Assembly (NCBI GenBank): GCA_049650095.1
Contig: JBARZM010000115.1
Coordinates: forward strand, 1-62,935
Length of the DNA stretch: 62,935 bases
Reading direction: 5' to 3'
From: Rubrobacteraceae bacterium
Lineage (GTDB): Bacteria > Actinomycetota > Rubrobacteria > Rubrobacterales > Rubrobacteraceae
Made by a program: the position numbers and the translations under genes. Of the stretch, positions 29,854-48,320 are shown piece after piece. The notes under the pieces are model-generated. The model ran no database searches, was not told the DNA's origin, and worked only from the letters and a program-made list of their open reading frames with translations. How positions within the stretch are numbered: the stretch's first letter is position 1; each line of letters starts with the position of its first letter.

Positions 29854-30204
29854 TTACTTCGTGGCCCAGTCTCGCGCTTCGAACTTCTTCAATGCTCGTA
29901 GGAACTCCACCCGAAGCTCGTCGTAACTCGCTTCCGCCGAGGCGGGACGGGACGACACGACTATATCGATTTTCATATTGCCCGGCGCGGAGGCGCTGAA
30001 GATATCCTTGAGCCTGCGCCGAACCTTGTTGCGTACCACCGCGTTACCTACTTTTTTAGATACCGACAACCCCAACCTGGCCGTCTCCAATTCGTTCGGG
30101 AAGGCGTGAACAGAGAAGAGCTTGCCCCGATAAGCTGCGCCCTGTCGGTAAACTCTCTCAAACTCAGCAGAGTCCGTGAGTCGCGTGCGGCTACTGCCCG
30201 ACAA
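29854..30204 (-). CDS. rnpA: RNase P protein component
   Basis: 116 aa, basic, with the RNR-like motif [15 protein letters not shown] start 3 nt after the rpmH stop. Confidence 0.88.
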
Positions 30205-30207
30205 GGT

Positions 30208-30342
30208 TTAGACAGCCAGCTTCTTCCTGCCGCGACTTCTCCGGGCGTTCAAGACTCGGCGGCCACCGACTGTGCTCATACGCTTCCGGAAACCGTGCGT
30301 CTTTGCACGCTTGCGTTTGTTCGGCTGGTAAGTGCGCTTCAT
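30208..30342 (-). CDS. rpmH: 50S ribosomal protein L34
   Basis: Not in the track because it is under 60 aa. Manual translation gives [44 protein letters not shown], 44 aa plus TAA. Confidence 0.95.
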
Positions 30343-30605
30343 GATGCTCCTCTGTTACGTCTTTTATCTACCTGTTCAAAGCACCTTATTGTATCCGAGA
30401 GCATCCATGTCATCCAACGTCTCGACACGGGCAGCGGGACCGTACCCGGGAAACATTTCCGCCGCATCTCACAGAAAATACCTGCAAAGTAGCCACAATC
30501 TAAGCGATATTTCGTTCTAGAGCGGGTGGACGTCGCGCACTAAATAGGGTGCAAAATGCCTGGTCCGGCTTGCTAAGGCACGCCATACCGTCACTTTTCA
30601 ACAGT

Positions 30606-30638
30606 TTATCCACAGGCTGTGGATAGTTTTGTGGATAA
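30606..30638. promoter_or_regulatory. Cluster of three DnaA boxes (TTATCCACA 30606-30614; TGTGGATAG 30618-30626; TGTGGATAA 30630-30638)
   Basis: Direct matches to the consensus TTATCCACA, followed by AT-rich CTATATTAATGC. Lies upstream of the ORF that precedes dnaA. Confidence 0.75.
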
Positions 30639-30668
30639 CTATATTAATGCTCTGCAAATCGCCGCTTT

Positions 30669-31517
30669 TTGAGAGTCTGCTATAGCGTTAAGGCCCTTGT
30701 TACGCTAAATTCTGGGTCGGGGATGATCTACTCACAGCACATACAAGAGGGGTTCGAGGGGGCCGAGATCGGTGTTCGGATCGCCGTATATCCGAAGGAC
30801 GGGGGGCCGGAGGTGACCGAGGTTTCCGCCGCTGGGCCACGTACGGCGGCGGACAAATTCTCGAAGTTCGTGATGGACAAAGTAGGCGAGCTGGGGGGGA
30901 AAGTCCCCGGGTCTTCGGTGAGAGAAGTCGTCGAGAACCTCATACACGCGGAGTACAAAGGAGTAGTGATCTCCGTTCTAGAAAACGGCAACAGTGTGCG
31001 CGTCTCGGACAAAGGGCCGGGCATCGGCGACAAGGCGCGGGCCATGGAGTTTGGCTTCTCCGGCGCGGAACCCGGGACCTTGCGGAACATAAGGGGTGTC
31101 GGGGCCGGACTCGGCATTGCCCGCACGTCCGCGGAGAAGGTCGGGGGAACGGTCACCATAGAAGACAACATTGGTGGCGGAACCGTGGCAACCGTTGCCG
31201 TACCTGAAGCCGGCGCAGGGATACCGGTGGCGGCCGGGGCGCCGGAAGAGCCGTCCGCAAGACGGTATCCGGGCGGCGTGCCGCGCATGAACATCTCCGA
31301 GAGGCAGCAGAAAGTCCTCATAACGGTGCTTGAATGTGGGGAAGTCGGTCCCTCAACGGTGGCGGAGAGGTTGGAGATCAGCGTCAGCACGGCTTACAGG
31401 GACCTCTCGGTTCTAGAAGAACACGGCCTCGTCGCGACCGGTGAATCAGGTAAACGGTTGATCTCACCGCTCGGGCGGGATCTCGTAGAGGCCATCGTAA
31501 GCACGTGGGTAAAGTAG
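30669..31517 (+). CDS. GHKL (histidine-kinase-like) ATPase domain fused to a C-terminal winged-HTH; function unknown
   Basis: Likely start ATG 30723. N-box VVENLIHAE, G1 DKGPGIG, G2 GVGAGLGIA. No DHp or His phosphoacceptor and no TM segment. C-terminal ERQQKVLITVLECGEVGPSTVAERLEISVSTAYRDLSVLEEHGLV. Its stop is 3 nt before the dnaA GTG. Confidence 0.7.
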   Translation: MRVCYSVKALVTLNSGSGMIYSQHIQEGFEGAEIGVRIAVYPKDGGPEVTEVSAAGPRTAADKFSKFVMDKVGELGGKVPGSSVREVVENLIHAEYKGVVISVLENGNSVRVSDKGPGIGDKARAMEFGFSGAEPGTLRNIRGVGAGLGIARTSAEKVGGTVTIEDNIGGGTVATVAVPEAGAGIPVAAGAPEEPSARRYPGGVPRMNISERQQKVLITVLECGEVGPSTVAERLEISVSTAYRDLSVLEEHGLVATGESGKRLISPLGRDLVEAIVSTWVK

Positions 31518-31520
31518 CCC

Positions 31521-32870
31521 GTGGCGGGGAGGGCGGAAGAAGTCTGGTCTGAGGTGCTCGACCGGGTCTCCGAGCACATAAATACTCCTTCTTTCAAGGT
31601 CTGGTTCGAGGGCACGAGACCGGTCGATTTGTACGAGGAGCGGCTGGAGATTTCCGTTCCGAACTCCTTTGCCAAGGAGTACATAGAGAGCAAGTTCCGG
31701 TCTCTTCTGGAAGAGGCTCTAGGCTCCGTGATAGGCCGCCAGGACCCCAGACTGGTTGTCAGCATCGGCCGGGGACGGGGGGGAGAGGGCGGTAACGGCA
31801 GCGCTTCGGAGGCGGCCGAGTCGGTCTTGACGGCCAAGACTCCGCTTTCTTTCAAAGAAAAGTATTCGTTTGATTCTTTCGTTATCGGGGCGGGGAACAG
31901 GTTCGCCCACGCGGCCGCCCTGGCCGTGGCCGAGTCTCCCGGCGTCGTCTACAACCCGCTGTTCGTGTACGGGGGCGTAGGGCTAGGCAAGACCCACTTG
32001 CTGCGGGCCGTCGGGGCTTACGTCGGGGATCAAGACCCCACCATGGGGGTTCGTTACGTAACCTGCGAGCAGTTCACCAACGACTTCATAAACTCCATGC
32101 GGGACAACTCACCGCTCGGGTTTCAGAAACGCTACCGGGAGAACGATGTCCTTCTCGTAGACGACATACAGTTTCTTGAGAACAAAGTAGAGACCCAGGA
32201 AGCGTTCTTCCACACGTTCAACTCCCTGTACGAGGAGAACAAGCAGATCGTCATAGCCTCCGACCGGCACCCGAAATACATCCAGACCCTCGAAAATCGT
32301 CTGGTGAGCCGCTTTGAGTGGGGCCTGGTGACGGACATCCAACCTCCCGACCTCGAAACTCGCATAGCAATCCTGCGCAAAAAGGCTATCCTGGATAGCC
32401 TGGAGGTCGACGACGAAGTCTTGACGTTTATAGCTTCCAAAGTCTCGACCAACATCCGGGAGCTCGAAGGCGCCCTGGTGCGCATCCTGGCCTACTCTTC
32501 GCTCTACGGCCGCGCGCTGAGCGTGCCGCTGGCCGAGGAAGTGCTAAAAGACATCCTCCCCGACTCAGACTACCGGGAGATACCGGTCGAGCTCATCCAG
32601 CACGAAGTCTGCCGCTACTTCGGGGTCTCCAAGCAGGATTTGATCGGCGCCAGCCGTACCAAAGCCTTCGCATACCCGCGCCAGGTGGCGATGTACCTCT
32701 GCCGGGAGATGACCGACGAGTCCCTACCGAAGATAGGACGGGCTTTCGGGGGCCGGGACCACTCGACCGTCATGCACGCCAACAGCAAAATCTCCAAACT
32801 CATCAACAACGACCGCGACGCCTTCAACCAAATACACGAAATTACCTACCACGTAAAAAGCAAACGTTGA
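31521..32870 (+). CDS. dnaA: Chromosomal replication initiator DnaA
   Basis: 449 aa with Walker A GGVGLGKTHLL, the sensor and box VII regions, and C-terminal domain IV (DHSTVMHA). Confidence 0.95.
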   Translation: MAGRAEEVWSEVLDRVSEHINTPSFKVWFEGTRPVDLYEERLEISVPNSFAKEYIESKFRSLLEEALGSVIGRQDPRLVVSIGRGRGGEGGNGSASEAAESVLTAKTPLSFKEKYSFDSFVIGAGNRFAHAAALAVAESPGVVYNPLFVYGGVGLGKTHLLRAVGAYVGDQDPTMGVRYVTCEQFTNDFINSMRDNSPLGFQKRYRENDVLLVDDIQFLENKVETQEAFFHTFNSLYEENKQIVIASDRHPKYIQTLENRLVSRFEWGLVTDIQPPDLETRIAILRKKAILDSLEVDDEVLTFIASKVSTNIRELEGALVRILAYSSLYGRALSVPLAEEVLKDILPDSDYREIPVELIQHEVCRYFGVSKQDLIGASRTKAFAYPRQVAMYLCREMTDESLPKIGRAFGGRDHSTVMHANSKISKLINNDRDAFNQIHEITYHVKSKR

Positions 32871-32962
32871 CCCCAAAGCTCCAAATTTCGTGAATTACCC
32901 ACTTTACCCCTCCCCGGCAGGGTGGGTAGATTGTAACAAAAATAAGGCCTCCGAGACCGAAG

Positions 32963-33341
32963 TTATCCACAGCCTGTCCACAACCGCTCTTTTAGCTGTG
33001 GATAACCCACACTACTTTATCCACAGTTTTGCCGAGTTATCCACAATTTCTGTGGACAGGCACCCGAATCTGTGGACAAAAAAATTTGATCCGGTGCGTT
33101 TTGAAGGTCTATATAACTACTCAACGATACAGTCTGTGGATAAACCTGTGGATAAGAGGGGTAAAATCTGTGGATAAACCTGTGGATAGTTTTGTGGATA
33201 AACTTTACCTGTGGATAAACGGAGAGTTATCCACAATTTATCCACAGGTAATTCTTGGTTATCCACAATTTTGTCCACAGGGCGGTAGGGTAGTATTTGG
33301 CTTAAGTAAAAGCCGTTTGGTAGTTTATCCACATATCCACA
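32963..33341. other. oriC DnaA-box array (19 boxes, 13 perfect)
   Basis: TTATCCACA or its reverse complement starts at 32963, 32997, 33017, 33037, 33135, 33147, 33169, 33193, 33210, 33227, 33238, 33259 and 33325. One- or two-mismatch boxes start at 32974, 33051, 33071, 33181, 33271 and 33333. The array is in the dnaA-dnaN spacer. Confidence 0.9.
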
Positions 33342-33345
33342 GGCC

Positions 33346-33396
33346 TTATTATTATTATTATTCTAATAAATAGAATATTAGGTAGTACTAATAAGG
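33346..33396. other. AT-rich DNA unwinding element with (TTA)5 run
   Basis: TTATTATTATTATTATTCTAATAAATAGAATATTAGGTAGTACTAATAA lies directly after the last DnaA box and a GGCC spacer. It is by far the most AT-rich stretch of the window. Confidence 0.6.
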
Positions 33397-33412
33397 GAAG
33401 AAAGGAGTTGGT

Positions 33413-34558
33413 ATGAGGGCTGTTTGCAACATAGATATCTTTAGTAAAAAGCTCGCCCTGGTATCCCGGGGGGTGTCGGCCCGATCGGCCATTCAGTTGC
33501 TCGGTGGGATATTGCTCGAGGCGGACGGCGACTCTGTAAAGCTGTCGGCCACGGACATGGAGATCTCCGTCCAAACCTCTTCGCCGGCGGAGATCGAGGA
33601 AGAGGGACGGGTGGTCATTCCGGCCCGCATCTTTAATGACATCGTCCGGTCTTTGCCGAAGGGTCAGTTCACGTTGGAGCATGACACGTCGGCCGGAACG
33701 GTAAAACTCTCGGCGGGAGAGAACGAGTACACGATCCGGGCTTACGCCGCGGAGGACTTTCCGCAGCTGCCGCAGTTCGAGGAAGAGGCTTCCTTCACGA
33801 TGCTGGGGGACGTGCTGGTCGATACGGTCGAGAAGGTTTCGAAATCCTACTCGCGGGACGAGACGCGGCCGGTGTTGACGGGGATACTCATTAGCTTCGA
33901 GGAATCCCGGGTACGGATGGTGACGACGGACTCTTACCGGCTCTCCATCAAAGAGAGCGAGTTGGCGACGACGTTCGACGATTCTCGGGAGGCGATCGTG
34001 CCGGCCCGGGCGATGCAAGAGGTTGGCCGCATCTTCTCCGGGGCCGACGAAGATCAGATAGAGGTGGTGCTCTCCGAGAACCAGGCGCTGTTCAGGATCG
34101 GGGACGTGTTATTGGGCAGTCGTTTGATCGATGGCAACTTCCCGGAGTACAAGCGGCTCCTGCCGACGACGTTCGAGCGGGAGATCTCCGTGGACCGGGA
34201 GGAGTTGATGGGCACGCTTCGCCGGGTCAACCTGTTTGCCCAGCGTCAGACCCCGCCGGTTCCGGTCAGCCTCGCGTTCTCGAGCGGCGCGGTCGAAGTC
34301 ATCGTGCGTAACGGGGAGATCGGGGAGGCGCACGAGAAGCTGGCGGCCTCCAGCGAGGACGAGTTCCACATCTCGTTCAACCCGGGGTATTTGCTGGACG
34401 GCGTTTCGGCGGTCACCTCCGAGAACGTGGTCTTCAGGCTCAACGAGTCGCTCAAGCCCGGTTTGATCGTGCCCGCTTCGGAGGACGGGAACGGGGACGG
34501 CGGCGAGCCGGACTTCCTTTACCTGATCATGCCGATGCGAGACCCGTCCCAGAACTAG
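33413..34558 (+). CDS. dnaN: DNA polymerase III beta sliding clamp
   Basis: 381 aa with AAAGGAG 7 nt upstream. Three-domain clamp pattern and conserved position. Confidence 0.95.
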   Translation: MRAVCNIDIFSKKLALVSRGVSARSAIQLLGGILLEADGDSVKLSATDMEISVQTSSPAEIEEEGRVVIPARIFNDIVRSLPKGQFTLEHDTSAGTVKLSAGENEYTIRAYAAEDFPQLPQFEEEASFTMLGDVLVDTVEKVSKSYSRDETRPVLTGILISFEESRVRMVTTDSYRLSIKESELATTFDDSREAIVPARAMQEVGRIFSGADEDQIEVVLSENQALFRIGDVLLGSRLIDGNFPEYKRLLPTTFEREISVDREELMGTLRRVNLFAQRQTPPVPVSLAFSSGAVEVIVRNGEIGEAHEKLAASSEDEFHISFNPGYLLDGVSAVTSENVVFRLNESLKPGLIVPASEDGNGDGGEPDFLYLIMPMRDPSQN

Positions 34559-34563
34559 GACCG

Positions 34564-34758
34564 TTGGAGGTATCTCCCGGCACGACGCTCGGCCAGGCGC
34601 TGAAAGTTTCGGGTATCGCCGGAACCGGGGGTGAGGCGAAGGTGCGGATCCAATTCGGAGAAGTCCTGGTGAACGGCGAGGTCGAGGAGCGCCGCGGCCG
34701 GAAGCTCAAGGAGGGCGACGTGGTCGAGGTGGGGGACGAGCGCCTGGAGGTCCGCTAG
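34564..34758 (+). CDS. S4-domain RNA-binding protein (YaaA-like)
   Basis: 64 aa. GGEAKVRIQFGEVLVNGEVEERRGRKLKEGDVVEV is S4-like. Same dnaN-recF position as Bacillus yaaA. Confidence 0.75.
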   Translation: MEVSPGTTLGQALKVSGIAGTGGEAKVRIQFGEVLVNGEVEERRGRKLKEGDVVEVGDERLEVR

Positions 34759-35963: not shown

Positions 35964-41791
<5,828 letters not shown>

Positions 41792-44246: not shown

Positions 44247-44291
44247 AACTCAAACCGGCGCCCCACCGTAAGATACAATAAGACTGGTTGC

Positions 44292-44726
44292 GGGCCGTCC
44301 GACCCGCCGCTGCGCCGGAGTGACATCCGGCGTAGAGGAAAGTCCGGACTCGCACGGACCCGGTAGCCCGGGTCCCGAAGGCCGCTCGGGCCAACAACCC
44401 GAGGGACGGACGGGTGTAAGCCCTCCGTCACGTCAAGTGCAACAGAGAGCAGACCAGCCGATGGACCGGAGCTTTGCTATCGGTCACAGGTGATGGGTGA
44501 AAGGGTGGGGTAAGAGCCCACCGGCGGTATCCCGAGGCAAGCCTTAGGCTTTCCGGAGGGACCGGCCAGGTAAACTACCGGTGCGAGCAAGCCAAAGTGT
44601 CCCGGAGCCTCTCCGGAGGCCTCCGGGCGGGTAGGCGCAGCTTCGGCCCCGCAAGGGAGCCGAAGCCCGGGGAACAGCCCGGAGATGGATGGCGGGATAG
44701 ACAGGATCCGGCTTACAGGACGGCCC
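44292..44726 (+). ncRNA. rnpB: RNase P RNA, bacterial type A
   Basis: P1 pairs GGGCCGTCC with GGACGGCCC. P4 strands are GAGGAAAGTCCGGAC and ACAGGATCCGGCTTAC. Also has the GGGTGAAAGGGTGGGGTAAGAGCCCACC module. Ends are approximate to within 5 nt. Confidence 0.88.
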
Positions 44727-44855
44727 AAGCACCAAAAATCTCCAGCTTGCCACATTGGTTTTTGGAATGGATTCACAACAATTCTTCTTGCGATCCTCTA
44801 TACTTCGGCCTGCGAAAGAAGCCTTAAGTACATGCGTGCATAGAGGGAGCAGAAT

Positions 44856-48247: not shown

Positions 48248-48320
48248 AGCGGACGACGGGCTTCGAACCCGCGACCTCCAGCTTGGGAAGCTGGCGCTCT
48301 ACCAACTGAGCTACGTCCGC
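48248..48320 (-). tRNA. tRNA-Gly (anticodon CCC)
   Basis: Minus strand GCGGACGTAGCTCAGTTGGTAGAGCGCCAGCTTCCCAAGCTGGAGGTCGCGGGTTCGAAGCCCGTCGTCCGCT folds as a cloverleaf. 7-bp acceptor, TTCGAAG T-loop, anticodon loop TTCCCAA. No encoded CCA. Confidence 0.9.

Follow-up and report, generated by a model that had tools for sequence, protein, structure and literature searches.

Background

The regulators that act on DnaA, among them Hda, SeqA, YabA, SirA, Soj and HobA, are lineage-specific, and beyond a few model bacteria the control of DnaA is, to our knowledge, largely uncharted. Two described systems, Soj/ParA of Bacillus subtilis and AdpA of Streptomyces, are nucleotide-dependent DNA-binding regulators of DnaA or oriC, and in B. 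subtilis the latter is bipartite, with dnaA placed between two clusters of DnaA boxes. The GHKL-type ATP-binding (Bergerat) fold is used for phosphate transfer by SpoIIAB, the PDK/BCK kinases and histidine kinases, and we know of no case in which it has been linked to the control of initiation. Here we describe a gene, termed X below, whose product combines this fold with a DNA-binding domain and which lies between rpmH and dnaA in a stretch of DNA from a Rubrobacteraceae bacterium (GenBank assembly GCA_049650095.1, contig JBARZM010000115.1). This gene is as conserved as dnaA and fixed ahead of it in at least three phyla, including the Coriobacteriia, a class with many human-gut members, which makes it a strong candidate for a new controller of the start of chromosome replication.

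The window, by which we mean the whole stretch of 62,935 nucleotides (nt) that was analysed, displays the gene order parA, rsmG, jag, yidC, yidD, rnpA and rpmH on one side and X, dnaA, dnaN, a gene for an S4 domain, recF and gyrB on the other, with rnpA and rpmH divergent from X and upstream of it. The GC skew switches sign near 29-31 kb and, when at most one mismatch per box is allowed, the window contains 31 DnaA boxes where 4.35 would be expected; it is a chromosomal origin region. As in the bipartite oriC of B. subtilis, dnaA stands between two box clusters with rpmH divergent upstream, but here an extra conserved gene occupies the space between the upstream cluster and dnaA. Downstream of dnaA, an AT-rich stretch follows the main cluster, ahead of dnaN. 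An initial annotation, made from the sequence by itself, had pointed to the 849-nt open reading frame (ORF) between rpmH and dnaA and proposed ATG 30723 as its start, with which both the coordinates and the alignment of homologues agree. The longest frame runs on the plus strand from a TTG at 30669 to 31517; however, the homologues align from residue 1 at ATG 30723, and the DnaA boxes keep their spacing from this ATG to within 1-2 nt, with 1-2-nt indels upstream of it, across the 48 spacers considered below, so that we take the product to be 264 amino acids long. The window holds no second copy of X, and an Rfam search of the locus returned no match.

Results and discussion

Gene X is fixed ahead of dnaA in at least three phyla

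A pattern scan with one genome per species recovered 56 loci, all from Rubrobacteraceae, Rubrobacterales and unclassified Actinomycetota metagenome-assembled genomes, with Rubrobacter marinus among them. Wherever the flanks exist, rnpA and rpmH point away from X, which is followed by dnaA and dnaN; dnaA is directly downstream in all 55 informative loci and rpmH upstream in 50. Sequence searches revealed thousands of homologues: in a protein database clustered at 90% the relatives number more than 1,181, and the top 120 are full-length with 70-85% identity; an exhaustive HMMER search of 1.84 billion cluster representatives recovered 430 clusters at E < 1e-10, 114 of them at E < 1e-30, with full-length relatives of 33-47% identity. 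Distant relatives with 33-48% identity come from Coriobacteriia, Armatimonadota and Limnochordia/Bacillota, and the taxon labels attached to the family at source comprise Armatimonadota, Coriobacteriia, Coriobacteriales, Coriobacteriaceae, Anaerosomatales, Limnochordia, Bacillota and Actinomycetota. We examined nine contigs that carry such distant relatives, from Armatimonadota, Coriobacteriia and other lineages, and found rpmH/rnpA divergent from the series X, dnaA, dnaN in 9/9, usually with recF, dciA and gyrB next in line. A scan of metagenomes, seeded with X-family peptides only, led to 472 confirmed stretches, and we retained 80 of these. With loci counted as informative when at least 400 nt were available downstream (for dnaA) or at least 1,200 nt upstream (for rpmH or rnpA), dnaA is directly downstream on the same strand in 79/79 and rpmH or rnpA is divergent upstream in 69/71. 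Taken together, the loci number more than 140 and represent at least three phyla, and in all of them X is adjacent to dnaA, on the same strand and across a short gap. This lends support to the link with initiation or the origin region that the initial annotation had surmised: in the synteny survey the homologues are dnaA-linked in every full-length member examined.

The members of this family bear generic database names ("ATP-binding protein", "ArsR family regulator", "anti-sigma regulatory factor"), and no curated family for it exists in Pfam, NCBIfam, PHROGs or PADLOC. We found no description of the gene in the full texts of 8.3 million papers and preprints, a collection that leaves out subscription-only papers and makes "undescribed" a provisional term, but the result agrees with the earlier remark that no factor of this architecture is known from this locus. 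The family is apparently undescribed, phylum-spanning and tied to dnaA.

We consider it slightly better than an even bet that the product of X is an ATP-dependent switch that would engage origin-region DNA and modulate either the action of DnaA or the transcription of the operon, X being the promoter-proximal cistron of a dnaA operon under DnaA-box control. The distribution bears most directly on a different proposal, that X encodes an ordinary transcription factor with a regulon unrelated to replication, whose place before dnaA would be a frozen accident or would link its expression to gene dosage or growth rate. The generic make-up of the protein, a sensor-type nucleotide-binding domain with a winged helix that resembles the Csa3/CasR regulators, would suit such a factor, as would the failure of our motif comparisons to identify an origin-specific DNA target. 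Yet strict adjacency, strand and short gap are kept in all of the above loci at identities down to 33-48%, X is as conserved as DnaA with a divergence that tracks that of DnaA, and the sole paralogue found away from dnaA differs in architecture by an added XRE domain and has a phage-like neighbor, which makes this proposal improbable.

Selection, co-divergence with DnaA and paralogues

GC-rich DNA generally contains long spurious ORFs, several of which overlap this region, and this general fact is all that could be said for X being a non-functional frame, be it a chance ORF, a pseudogene or a recent insertion. That idea is already refuted and retains practically no probability: the ratio of nonsynonymous to synonymous substitutions (dN/dS) is 0.05-0.18 in pairwise comparisons with seven relatives, dS being saturated, two Pfam domains score over their cut-offs, the fold is confidently predicted and the thousands of homologues show conserved synteny. 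X is a real gene under strong purifying selection. Moreover, pairwise identities of X and DnaA correlate with r = 0.87 over 112 loci and r = 0.82 in a diverse set without Rubrobacter, and the mean pairwise identity in the diverse set is 0.54 for both proteins. This co-divergence fits a long vertical co-inheritance under strong constraint, and X is an ancient, genuine gene.

The only paralogue found away from dnaA is a protein of 347 residues (P0123), 60% identical to X, which has an extra N-terminal XRE helix-turn-helix ahead of the GHKL domain and winged helix; it is encoded on a 2.5-kb contig next to a phage-like gene (phrog_21138, Holliday-junction-resolvase PHROGs). Three further proteins (P0225, P0243 and P0246) combine an XRE domain with a winged helix that shares 74-77% identity with the one in X, and lack the GHKL domain. 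These XRE paralogues look like mobile-element derivatives that may perhaps be aimed at the same DNA or partner as X. A mobile-element origin of X itself was rejected, as it has no plasmid relatives save for a generic kinase-domain match and none in viral contigs. PADLOC likewise returned no match of X to a defence-system ATPase.

A complete ATP site joined to a winged helix

As the initial annotation had suggested, we ran profile searches and a structure prediction, which gave significant GHKL and helix-turn-helix matches. Pfam recognizes HATPase_c (PF02518; 47.9 bits, cut-off 26.4) at residues 66-162, a TrmB winged helix (34.5 bits, cut-off 25.6) at residues 189-248 and also HTH_IclR (26.1 bits, cut-off 22). 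The N, G1 and G2 boxes of a histidine-kinase-like ATPase, which had been spotted by eye, contain residues that are invariant across phyla, namely N72, H75 and A76 (N), D96, G98 and G100 (G1), and G125, G127 and G129 (G2). E68, four residues ahead of N72, is present in at least 90% of the family. In the winged helix the cross-phylum invariant residues are R194, then S222 and R226, which belong to the recognition helix, and R245 of the wing. Only Y23 and P29 are invariant in the N-terminal region and linker. Because these ATP-site and winged-helix residues do not vary, both ATP binding and whatever the winged helix contacts are under selection. No HisKA/DHp domain was matched in Pfam at E up to 1 and no transmembrane segment is present (maximal Kyte-Doolittle hydropathy over 19 residues, 1.33), as the initial annotation had stated; the protein is soluble. 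That annotation was also right about a C-terminal winged helix-turn-helix, but not about its MarR/DeoR-like type, since TrmB-, IclR- and ArsR-like profiles match best (MarR E = 0.16, DeoR E = 2e-4). NCBIfam holds no family specific to X and gave only sub-threshold kinase, MutL and Csa3-HTH matches. Profile, fold and invariant residues thus agree in support of the ATP-binding, DNA-binding protein that had been predicted.

An AlphaFold2 model built from a 79-sequence multi-phylum alignment, with a mean predicted local distance difference test (pLDDT) score of 80.7, replaced a poor earlier model that used Rubrobacter sequences only (64.7). It displays two strands (16-22 and 30-36) and a helix (39-56); the Bergerat fold (63-159) comes next, and a disordered linker (166-186) connects it to a winged helix made up of three helices and a beta wing (193-263). 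The linker is of variable length across the family; extra domains or Rosetta-stone fusions in the longer relatives were ruled out, their linkers alone being longer. Foldseek aligns the ATP domain best with the catalytic domains of histidine kinases (HK853, CpxA) and with PDK/BCK kinases, and profile searches of PDB sequences recovered KinB (E = 1.8e-8), a BCK kinase, HK853 and CheA. Weak matches to MutL cover motif I only (NCBIfam residues 62-105, E = 0.0016; also MutL chains in PDB).

The product of X shares the Bergerat fold with N, G1, F-like and G2 boxes with the catalytic domains of sensor histidine kinases (HK853; KinB, PDB: 3d36) and with PDK/BCK, but it differs from these in lacking a DHp/HisKA domain, a sensor or transmembrane region and a response-regulator partner. 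Its N-terminal strand-strand-helix extension and its fusion to a winged helix further set it apart, and the model has no helical hairpin before the ATP domain. The neighbors are rpmH/rnpA and dnaA/dnaN in all loci, with no response regulator beside X. SpoIIAB and RsbW similarly have a GHKL domain without DHp and a glutamate four residues ahead of the Mg-binding asparagine, and pipelines of the Joint Genome Institute label some X members "anti-sigma regulatory factor". However, those are single-domain proteins of about 140 residues, whereas X has a second, DNA-binding-type domain and no match to HATPase_c_2 at E up to 1. The conserved neighborhood of X contains neither a STAS anti-anti-sigma gene nor a sigma factor gene. 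With the MutL/GyrB/Hsp90/MORC clamps X shares motif I (E68-V-V-E-N72-L-I-H-A, the glutamate standing four residues before the Mg-binding asparagine), but not the lysine-supplying transducer domain, as the linker and winged helix directly follow the Bergerat fold.

These affinities raise the alternative that X acts as a protein kinase tethered to DNA: its GHKL domain would phosphorylate DnaA, another initiation or replisome protein, or X itself, and the winged helix would only position it at the origin. Its closest relatives in sequence and structure are all kinases (KinB, BCKDK, HK853 and CheA), its lid motif GF(S/T)(T/G)A resembles the "hFTTA" of the BCK kinase, it lacks the transducer domain needed for hydrolysis by GHKL ATPases such as MutL and GyrB, and synthesis in constant proportion to DnaA would be fitting for an enzyme and its substrate or for a stoichiometric pair. 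On the other hand, neither the N-terminal region nor the linker offers a DHp or a conserved histidine, serine or threonine as acceptor, no STAS-type or response-regulator partner is encoded nearby, and motif I (E68-x3-N72-x2-H-A) aligns with the MutL type and is found in hydrolysing ATPases as well. We also know of no description of DnaA phosphorylation by such a kinase, which we count against this alternative, and on balance we deem it unlikely.

Turning back to the ATP-dependent switch, the combination of a sensing domain with a C-terminal winged helix has parallels among known regulators. X shares the winged helix-turn-helix of the TrmB/MarR/IclR factors but has no Pfam match to TrmB_C, the IclR effector domain or the MarR dimer helices, its partner domain being GHKL. 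Csa3/CasR and TrmB, like X, place a sensing domain ahead of a closely similar winged helix (TIGR01884 cas_HTH, E = 2.5e-7; PADLOC CasR, E = 1.3e-6), but there the sensing domain is CARF or sugar-binding and the genes lie in another genomic context. Among solved structures, Foldseek aligned just one along both halves of X, that of DIP2311 from Corynebacterium diphtheriae (PDB: 3lmm), which also has a GHKL-like domain and a winged helix; however, at about 555 residues it is twice as long, has a further N-terminal domain and is 13-15% identical to X. Anti-phage GHKL proteins (paraMORC) have no match over the GHKL part of X, the PADLOC matches covering the Csa3/CasR-type winged helix only. None of the known DnaA or oriC regulators (YabA, SirA, Soj, Hda, DiaA, HobA, SeqA, DnaD, CtrA/MtrA) is among the Pfam, NCBIfam or PDB matches. 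X is therefore not a member of any family tested, be it histidine or anti-sigma kinases, clamps, TrmB/IclR/MarR factors or DnaA regulators. By analogy with Csa3/CasR or TrmB it may work like a one-component regulator. The logic proposed for it also resembles what is generally known of Soj/ParA and AdpA, where the nucleotide state decides DNA binding near the origin and modulates DnaA, but these are a Walker ATPase and a member of the AraC family respectively, with folds unrelated to X, and neither leads the dnaA operon.

The junction with dnaA

The TAG of X (31515-31517) is separated by 3 nt from the GTG of dnaA (31521), as read by the initial annotation, and the distance between stop and start is 0-5 nt, mostly 2-3, in 55/55 Rubrobacteraceae loci with both genes as well as in the window. 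The duplex energy with the anti-Shine-Dalgarno sequence is -4.0 kcal/mol for dnaA and -5.0 kcal/mol for X against a background of -3.8 +/- 2.8, and neither gene has a Shine-Dalgarno site, in line with what had been noted for dnaA. Neighbors with clear sites reach -12.4 (dnaN), -10.5 (recF) and -8.5 kcal/mol (rpmH). A scan of 30200-33450 detected no terminator and no sigma-70-type site between X and dnaA. We also considered a dnaA promoter embedded in the 3' end of X, which is ruled out by the flat synonymous-site entropy (0.55-0.78) along the gene. The tight junction, the missing Shine-Dalgarno sites and the lack of an internal site form the pattern expected for co-transcription with termination-reinitiation; this is what we infer from them, not a proof, and with the absence of a synonymous dip it supports the earlier suggestion that dnaA is expressed as a second cistron.

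In more distant lineages the gap between X and dnaA was estimated at a median of 25 nt with a maximum of 109 nt (77 distinct loci). Anomalous negative estimates (-55 to -1446 nt) were obtained in a few distant metagenome loci (L120, L121, L125, L100 and L111), where the frame of X runs past its expected stop into or over the dnaA start. These are probably frame or assembly problems, but could be long overlaps or real fusions.

Conserved elements upstream of gene X

We aligned 48 full-length Rubrobacteraceae spacers between rpmH and X, from 47 loci and the window. Three DnaA boxes are found at -117 (+), -105 (-) and -93 (-) from the ATG of X, within 2 nt, in 48/48. The initial annotation had called all three consensus boxes; they are indeed present and two are perfect, but the middle one (30618-30626) has one mismatch. 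In distant lineages the rpmH-X spacer contains 7.0 DnaA boxes per kb against 0.16 per kb in coding DNA, a 44-fold enrichment that, along with the fixed triplet, supports the proposed DnaA-box control. The X-dnaA pair has a DnaA-box cluster on each side. Outside Rubrobacteraceae the upstream spacer has a median of 687 nt and 5 boxes versus 271 nt and 2 boxes between dnaA and dnaN, boxes being more numerous upstream of X in 50/55 such loci. Hence the dominant half of what appears to be a bipartite origin differs by lineage, lying between dnaA and dnaN in the window and upstream of X in most relatives outside Rubrobacter.

The spacers also contain a composite motif with the core CTGCAAA. Its proximal core is invariant at -71 (within 1 nt) from the ATG in 48/48 spacers, and both copies, which are non-palindromic, of the same orientation and placed one on either side of the DnaA-box triplet, are present in 46/48, mostly 157-160 nt apart. 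Neither CTGCAAA nor GCTATAGC occurs again in the origin region between dnaA and dnaN. CTGCAAA was not found in the spacers of other phyla, and the candidate operator motifs (both CTGCAAA copies and GCTATAGCG) are conserved in Rubrobacteraceae only. Occurrences of CCTGC[AG] in distant loci are scattered. We rejected a DNA motif common to all lineages as the target of the winged helix, as only DnaA-box variants are universal.

The paired motifs suggest a further possibility, an ATP-gated DNA bridge or clamp, in which dimerisation of the GHKL domains would join winged helices bound at two sites, for example the CTGCAAA sites about 159 nt apart, and so loop or compact the origin or help its positioning with ParAB. 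Apart from the two same-orientation motifs flanking the triplet, this would accommodate the MutL/GyrB-type E-x3-N motif and the N-terminal extension ahead of the Bergerat fold, the long flexible linker, and the presence of parA and parB a few kb upstream of X. But the transducer domain is missing, the structural neighbors are kinases rather than clamps, and CTGCAAA, a candidate site for X, is limited to Rubrobacteraceae though the recognition helix is invariant across phyla. We give this possibility little credence.

Closer to the gene, the hexamer at 30706-30711 varies across loci (TAAATT, TACATT, AATAAT, TAGATT), with A2 and T6 always kept, and GGGG is invariant immediately 5' of the ATG. 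The kept A2 and T6 would be the signature of a -10 element, an assignment made by conservation pattern only. Since X lacks a Shine-Dalgarno site and this -10-like hexamer lies 11 nt before its ATG, the X-dnaA mRNA may be nearly leaderless, with a leader of about 4-5 nt or none. The stability of leader RNA structure at 30640-30740 is no greater than that of shuffled sequence (z = +0.95). A TAGCG/CGCTA inverted repeat in the leader was dismissed as an RNA structure, as no compensatory changes are seen among the 48 loci.

A proposed mechanism and its implications

These observations allow us to outline how an ATP-dependent switch encoded by X might work. Transcription would start just downstream of the fixed DnaA-box triplet, from the putative -10 element, to yield a nearly leaderless mRNA on which X would be translated before dnaA. 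As dnaA has no separate ribosome-binding site and its start lies 3 nt beyond the stop of X, it would be translated mainly by termination-reinitiation, that is by ribosomes finishing X, and the two proteins would be made in constant proportion, controlled through the DnaA boxes. The X protein would act as a one-component ATP switch, composed of a GHKL domain with a complete Mg-ATP site, a flexible linker and a winged helix. Binding or turnover of ATP would alter its association state, its winged helix would engage origin-region DNA, which has DnaA-box clusters on both sides, and X would thereby tune the access of DnaA to its boxes, the activity of the operon promoter, or both. The domain make-up, the intact ATP site, the phylum-spanning position before dnaA, the tight junction, the missing Shine-Dalgarno sites and the conserved DnaA boxes are established observations, and they point to, rather than demonstrate, a shared transcript, coupled translation, DNA binding that depends on ATP, and an influence on initiation or dnaA expression.

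Several findings weigh against this proposal. Gaps of 30-100 nt separate X from dnaA in many loci outside Rubrobacteraceae, in some of which a Shine-Dalgarno site precedes dnaA, so that tight translational coupling is not universal. The scan of 30200-33450 called no sigma-70 consensus promoter upstream of or inside X, the putative -10 element included, and the 11 nt from this element to the ATG are longer than is usual for a strictly leaderless mRNA. No spacer motif beyond DnaA boxes is shared across lineages despite the invariant recognition helix. In the window protein the winged helix has an acidic pI of 5.0, which leaves room for protein binding instead of DNA binding, and the GHKL domain is nearest to protein kinases and not to ATP-driven clamps or switches.

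A bolder formulation, to which we assign not quite an even chance, is that X represents a new class of initiation factor in Rubrobacteria, Coriobacteriia, Armatimonadota and Limnochordia, a GHKL ATP switch or kinase that would be an obligate co-translated partner of DnaA and would license or restrain initiation through DnaA or origin DNA. Should X act on DnaA or the origin, it would introduce a new regulatory principle for initiation, make the synthesis of DnaA in these organisms dependent on the translation of another gene and place a second nucleotide-sensing protein beside DnaA-ATP in their core initiation machinery. The hypothesis lends itself to direct testing, as X is carried by a cultured host, Rubrobacter marinus (strain SCSIO 52915), and the protein is small and soluble.

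Feature coordinates and other observations in the window

Table 1. Positions of gene X, its neighbors and its candidate regulatory elements (window coordinates, except for the last row)
Feature	Position	Strand	Remarks
rpmH (ribosomal protein L34, 44-residue ORF)	30208..30342	-	divergent neighbor upstream of gene X
CTGCAAA composite motif, distal copy, GAAAA-N3-CTGCAAA-N7-TTT	30482..30488	+	candidate operator or bent-DNA element
DnaA box 1 of triplet	30606-30614	+	perfect; 12-nt spacing within the triplet
DnaA box 2 of triplet	30618-30626	-	one mismatch
DnaA box 3 of triplet	30630-30638	-	perfect
CTGCAAA composite motif, proximal copy, TTAAT-N3-CTGCAAA-N7-TTT	30652..30658	+	directly 3' of the DnaA boxes
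Conserved block GCTATAGCG	30679..30687	+	at about the -35 position relative to the putative -10; presumed role, from the 48-spacer alignment
Putative -10 hexamer TAAATT	30706..30711	+	11 nt ahead of the X ATG
Gene X	30723..31517 (with stop)	+	264-residue GHKL-ATPase/winged-helix protein
N-terminal strand-strand-helix extension and Bergerat-fold ATP-binding domain, residues 16-162	30768..31208	+	
N box, E68-A76	30924-30950		
G1 box, D96-G100	31008-31022		
G2 box, G125-G131	31095-31115		
Variable linker, residues 163-188	31209..31286	+	predicted disordered; pLDDT <50 for residues 166-186
C-terminal winged helix-turn-helix, residues 189-264	31287..31514	+	TrmB and HTH_IclR profile matches
Stop-start junction TAG-ccc-GTG	31515..31523	+	proposed termination-reinitiation site coupling X to dnaA
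dnaA (449 residues, GTG start)	31521..32870	+	Bac_DnaA 231 bits, plus DnaA_N and Bac_DnaA_C
Main DnaA-box cluster (oriC)	32963..33341	.	20 boxes with at most one mismatch, between dnaA and dnaN
dnaN	33413..34558	+	downstream position kept in related loci
XRE paralogue loci	L147:139-1182 and L147:1466-2239		also L148

The small S4-domain gene between dnaN and recF (34564-34758, plus strand; S4_2, 78.5 bits) is also seen in an Armatimonadota locus (L057) and in locus L065. Further along, gyrB (35988-39272, plus strand; 1,094 residues) contains an intein (Pfam Intein_splicing, 73.8 bits, residues 464-890), the insertion point of which adjoins the Toprim domain. A bacterial class A RNase P RNA at 44291-44731 (plus strand), about 14 kb from rnpA, scores 106.6 bits, barely over the gathering score of 100, and a tRNA is encoded at 48248-48320 on the minus strand.

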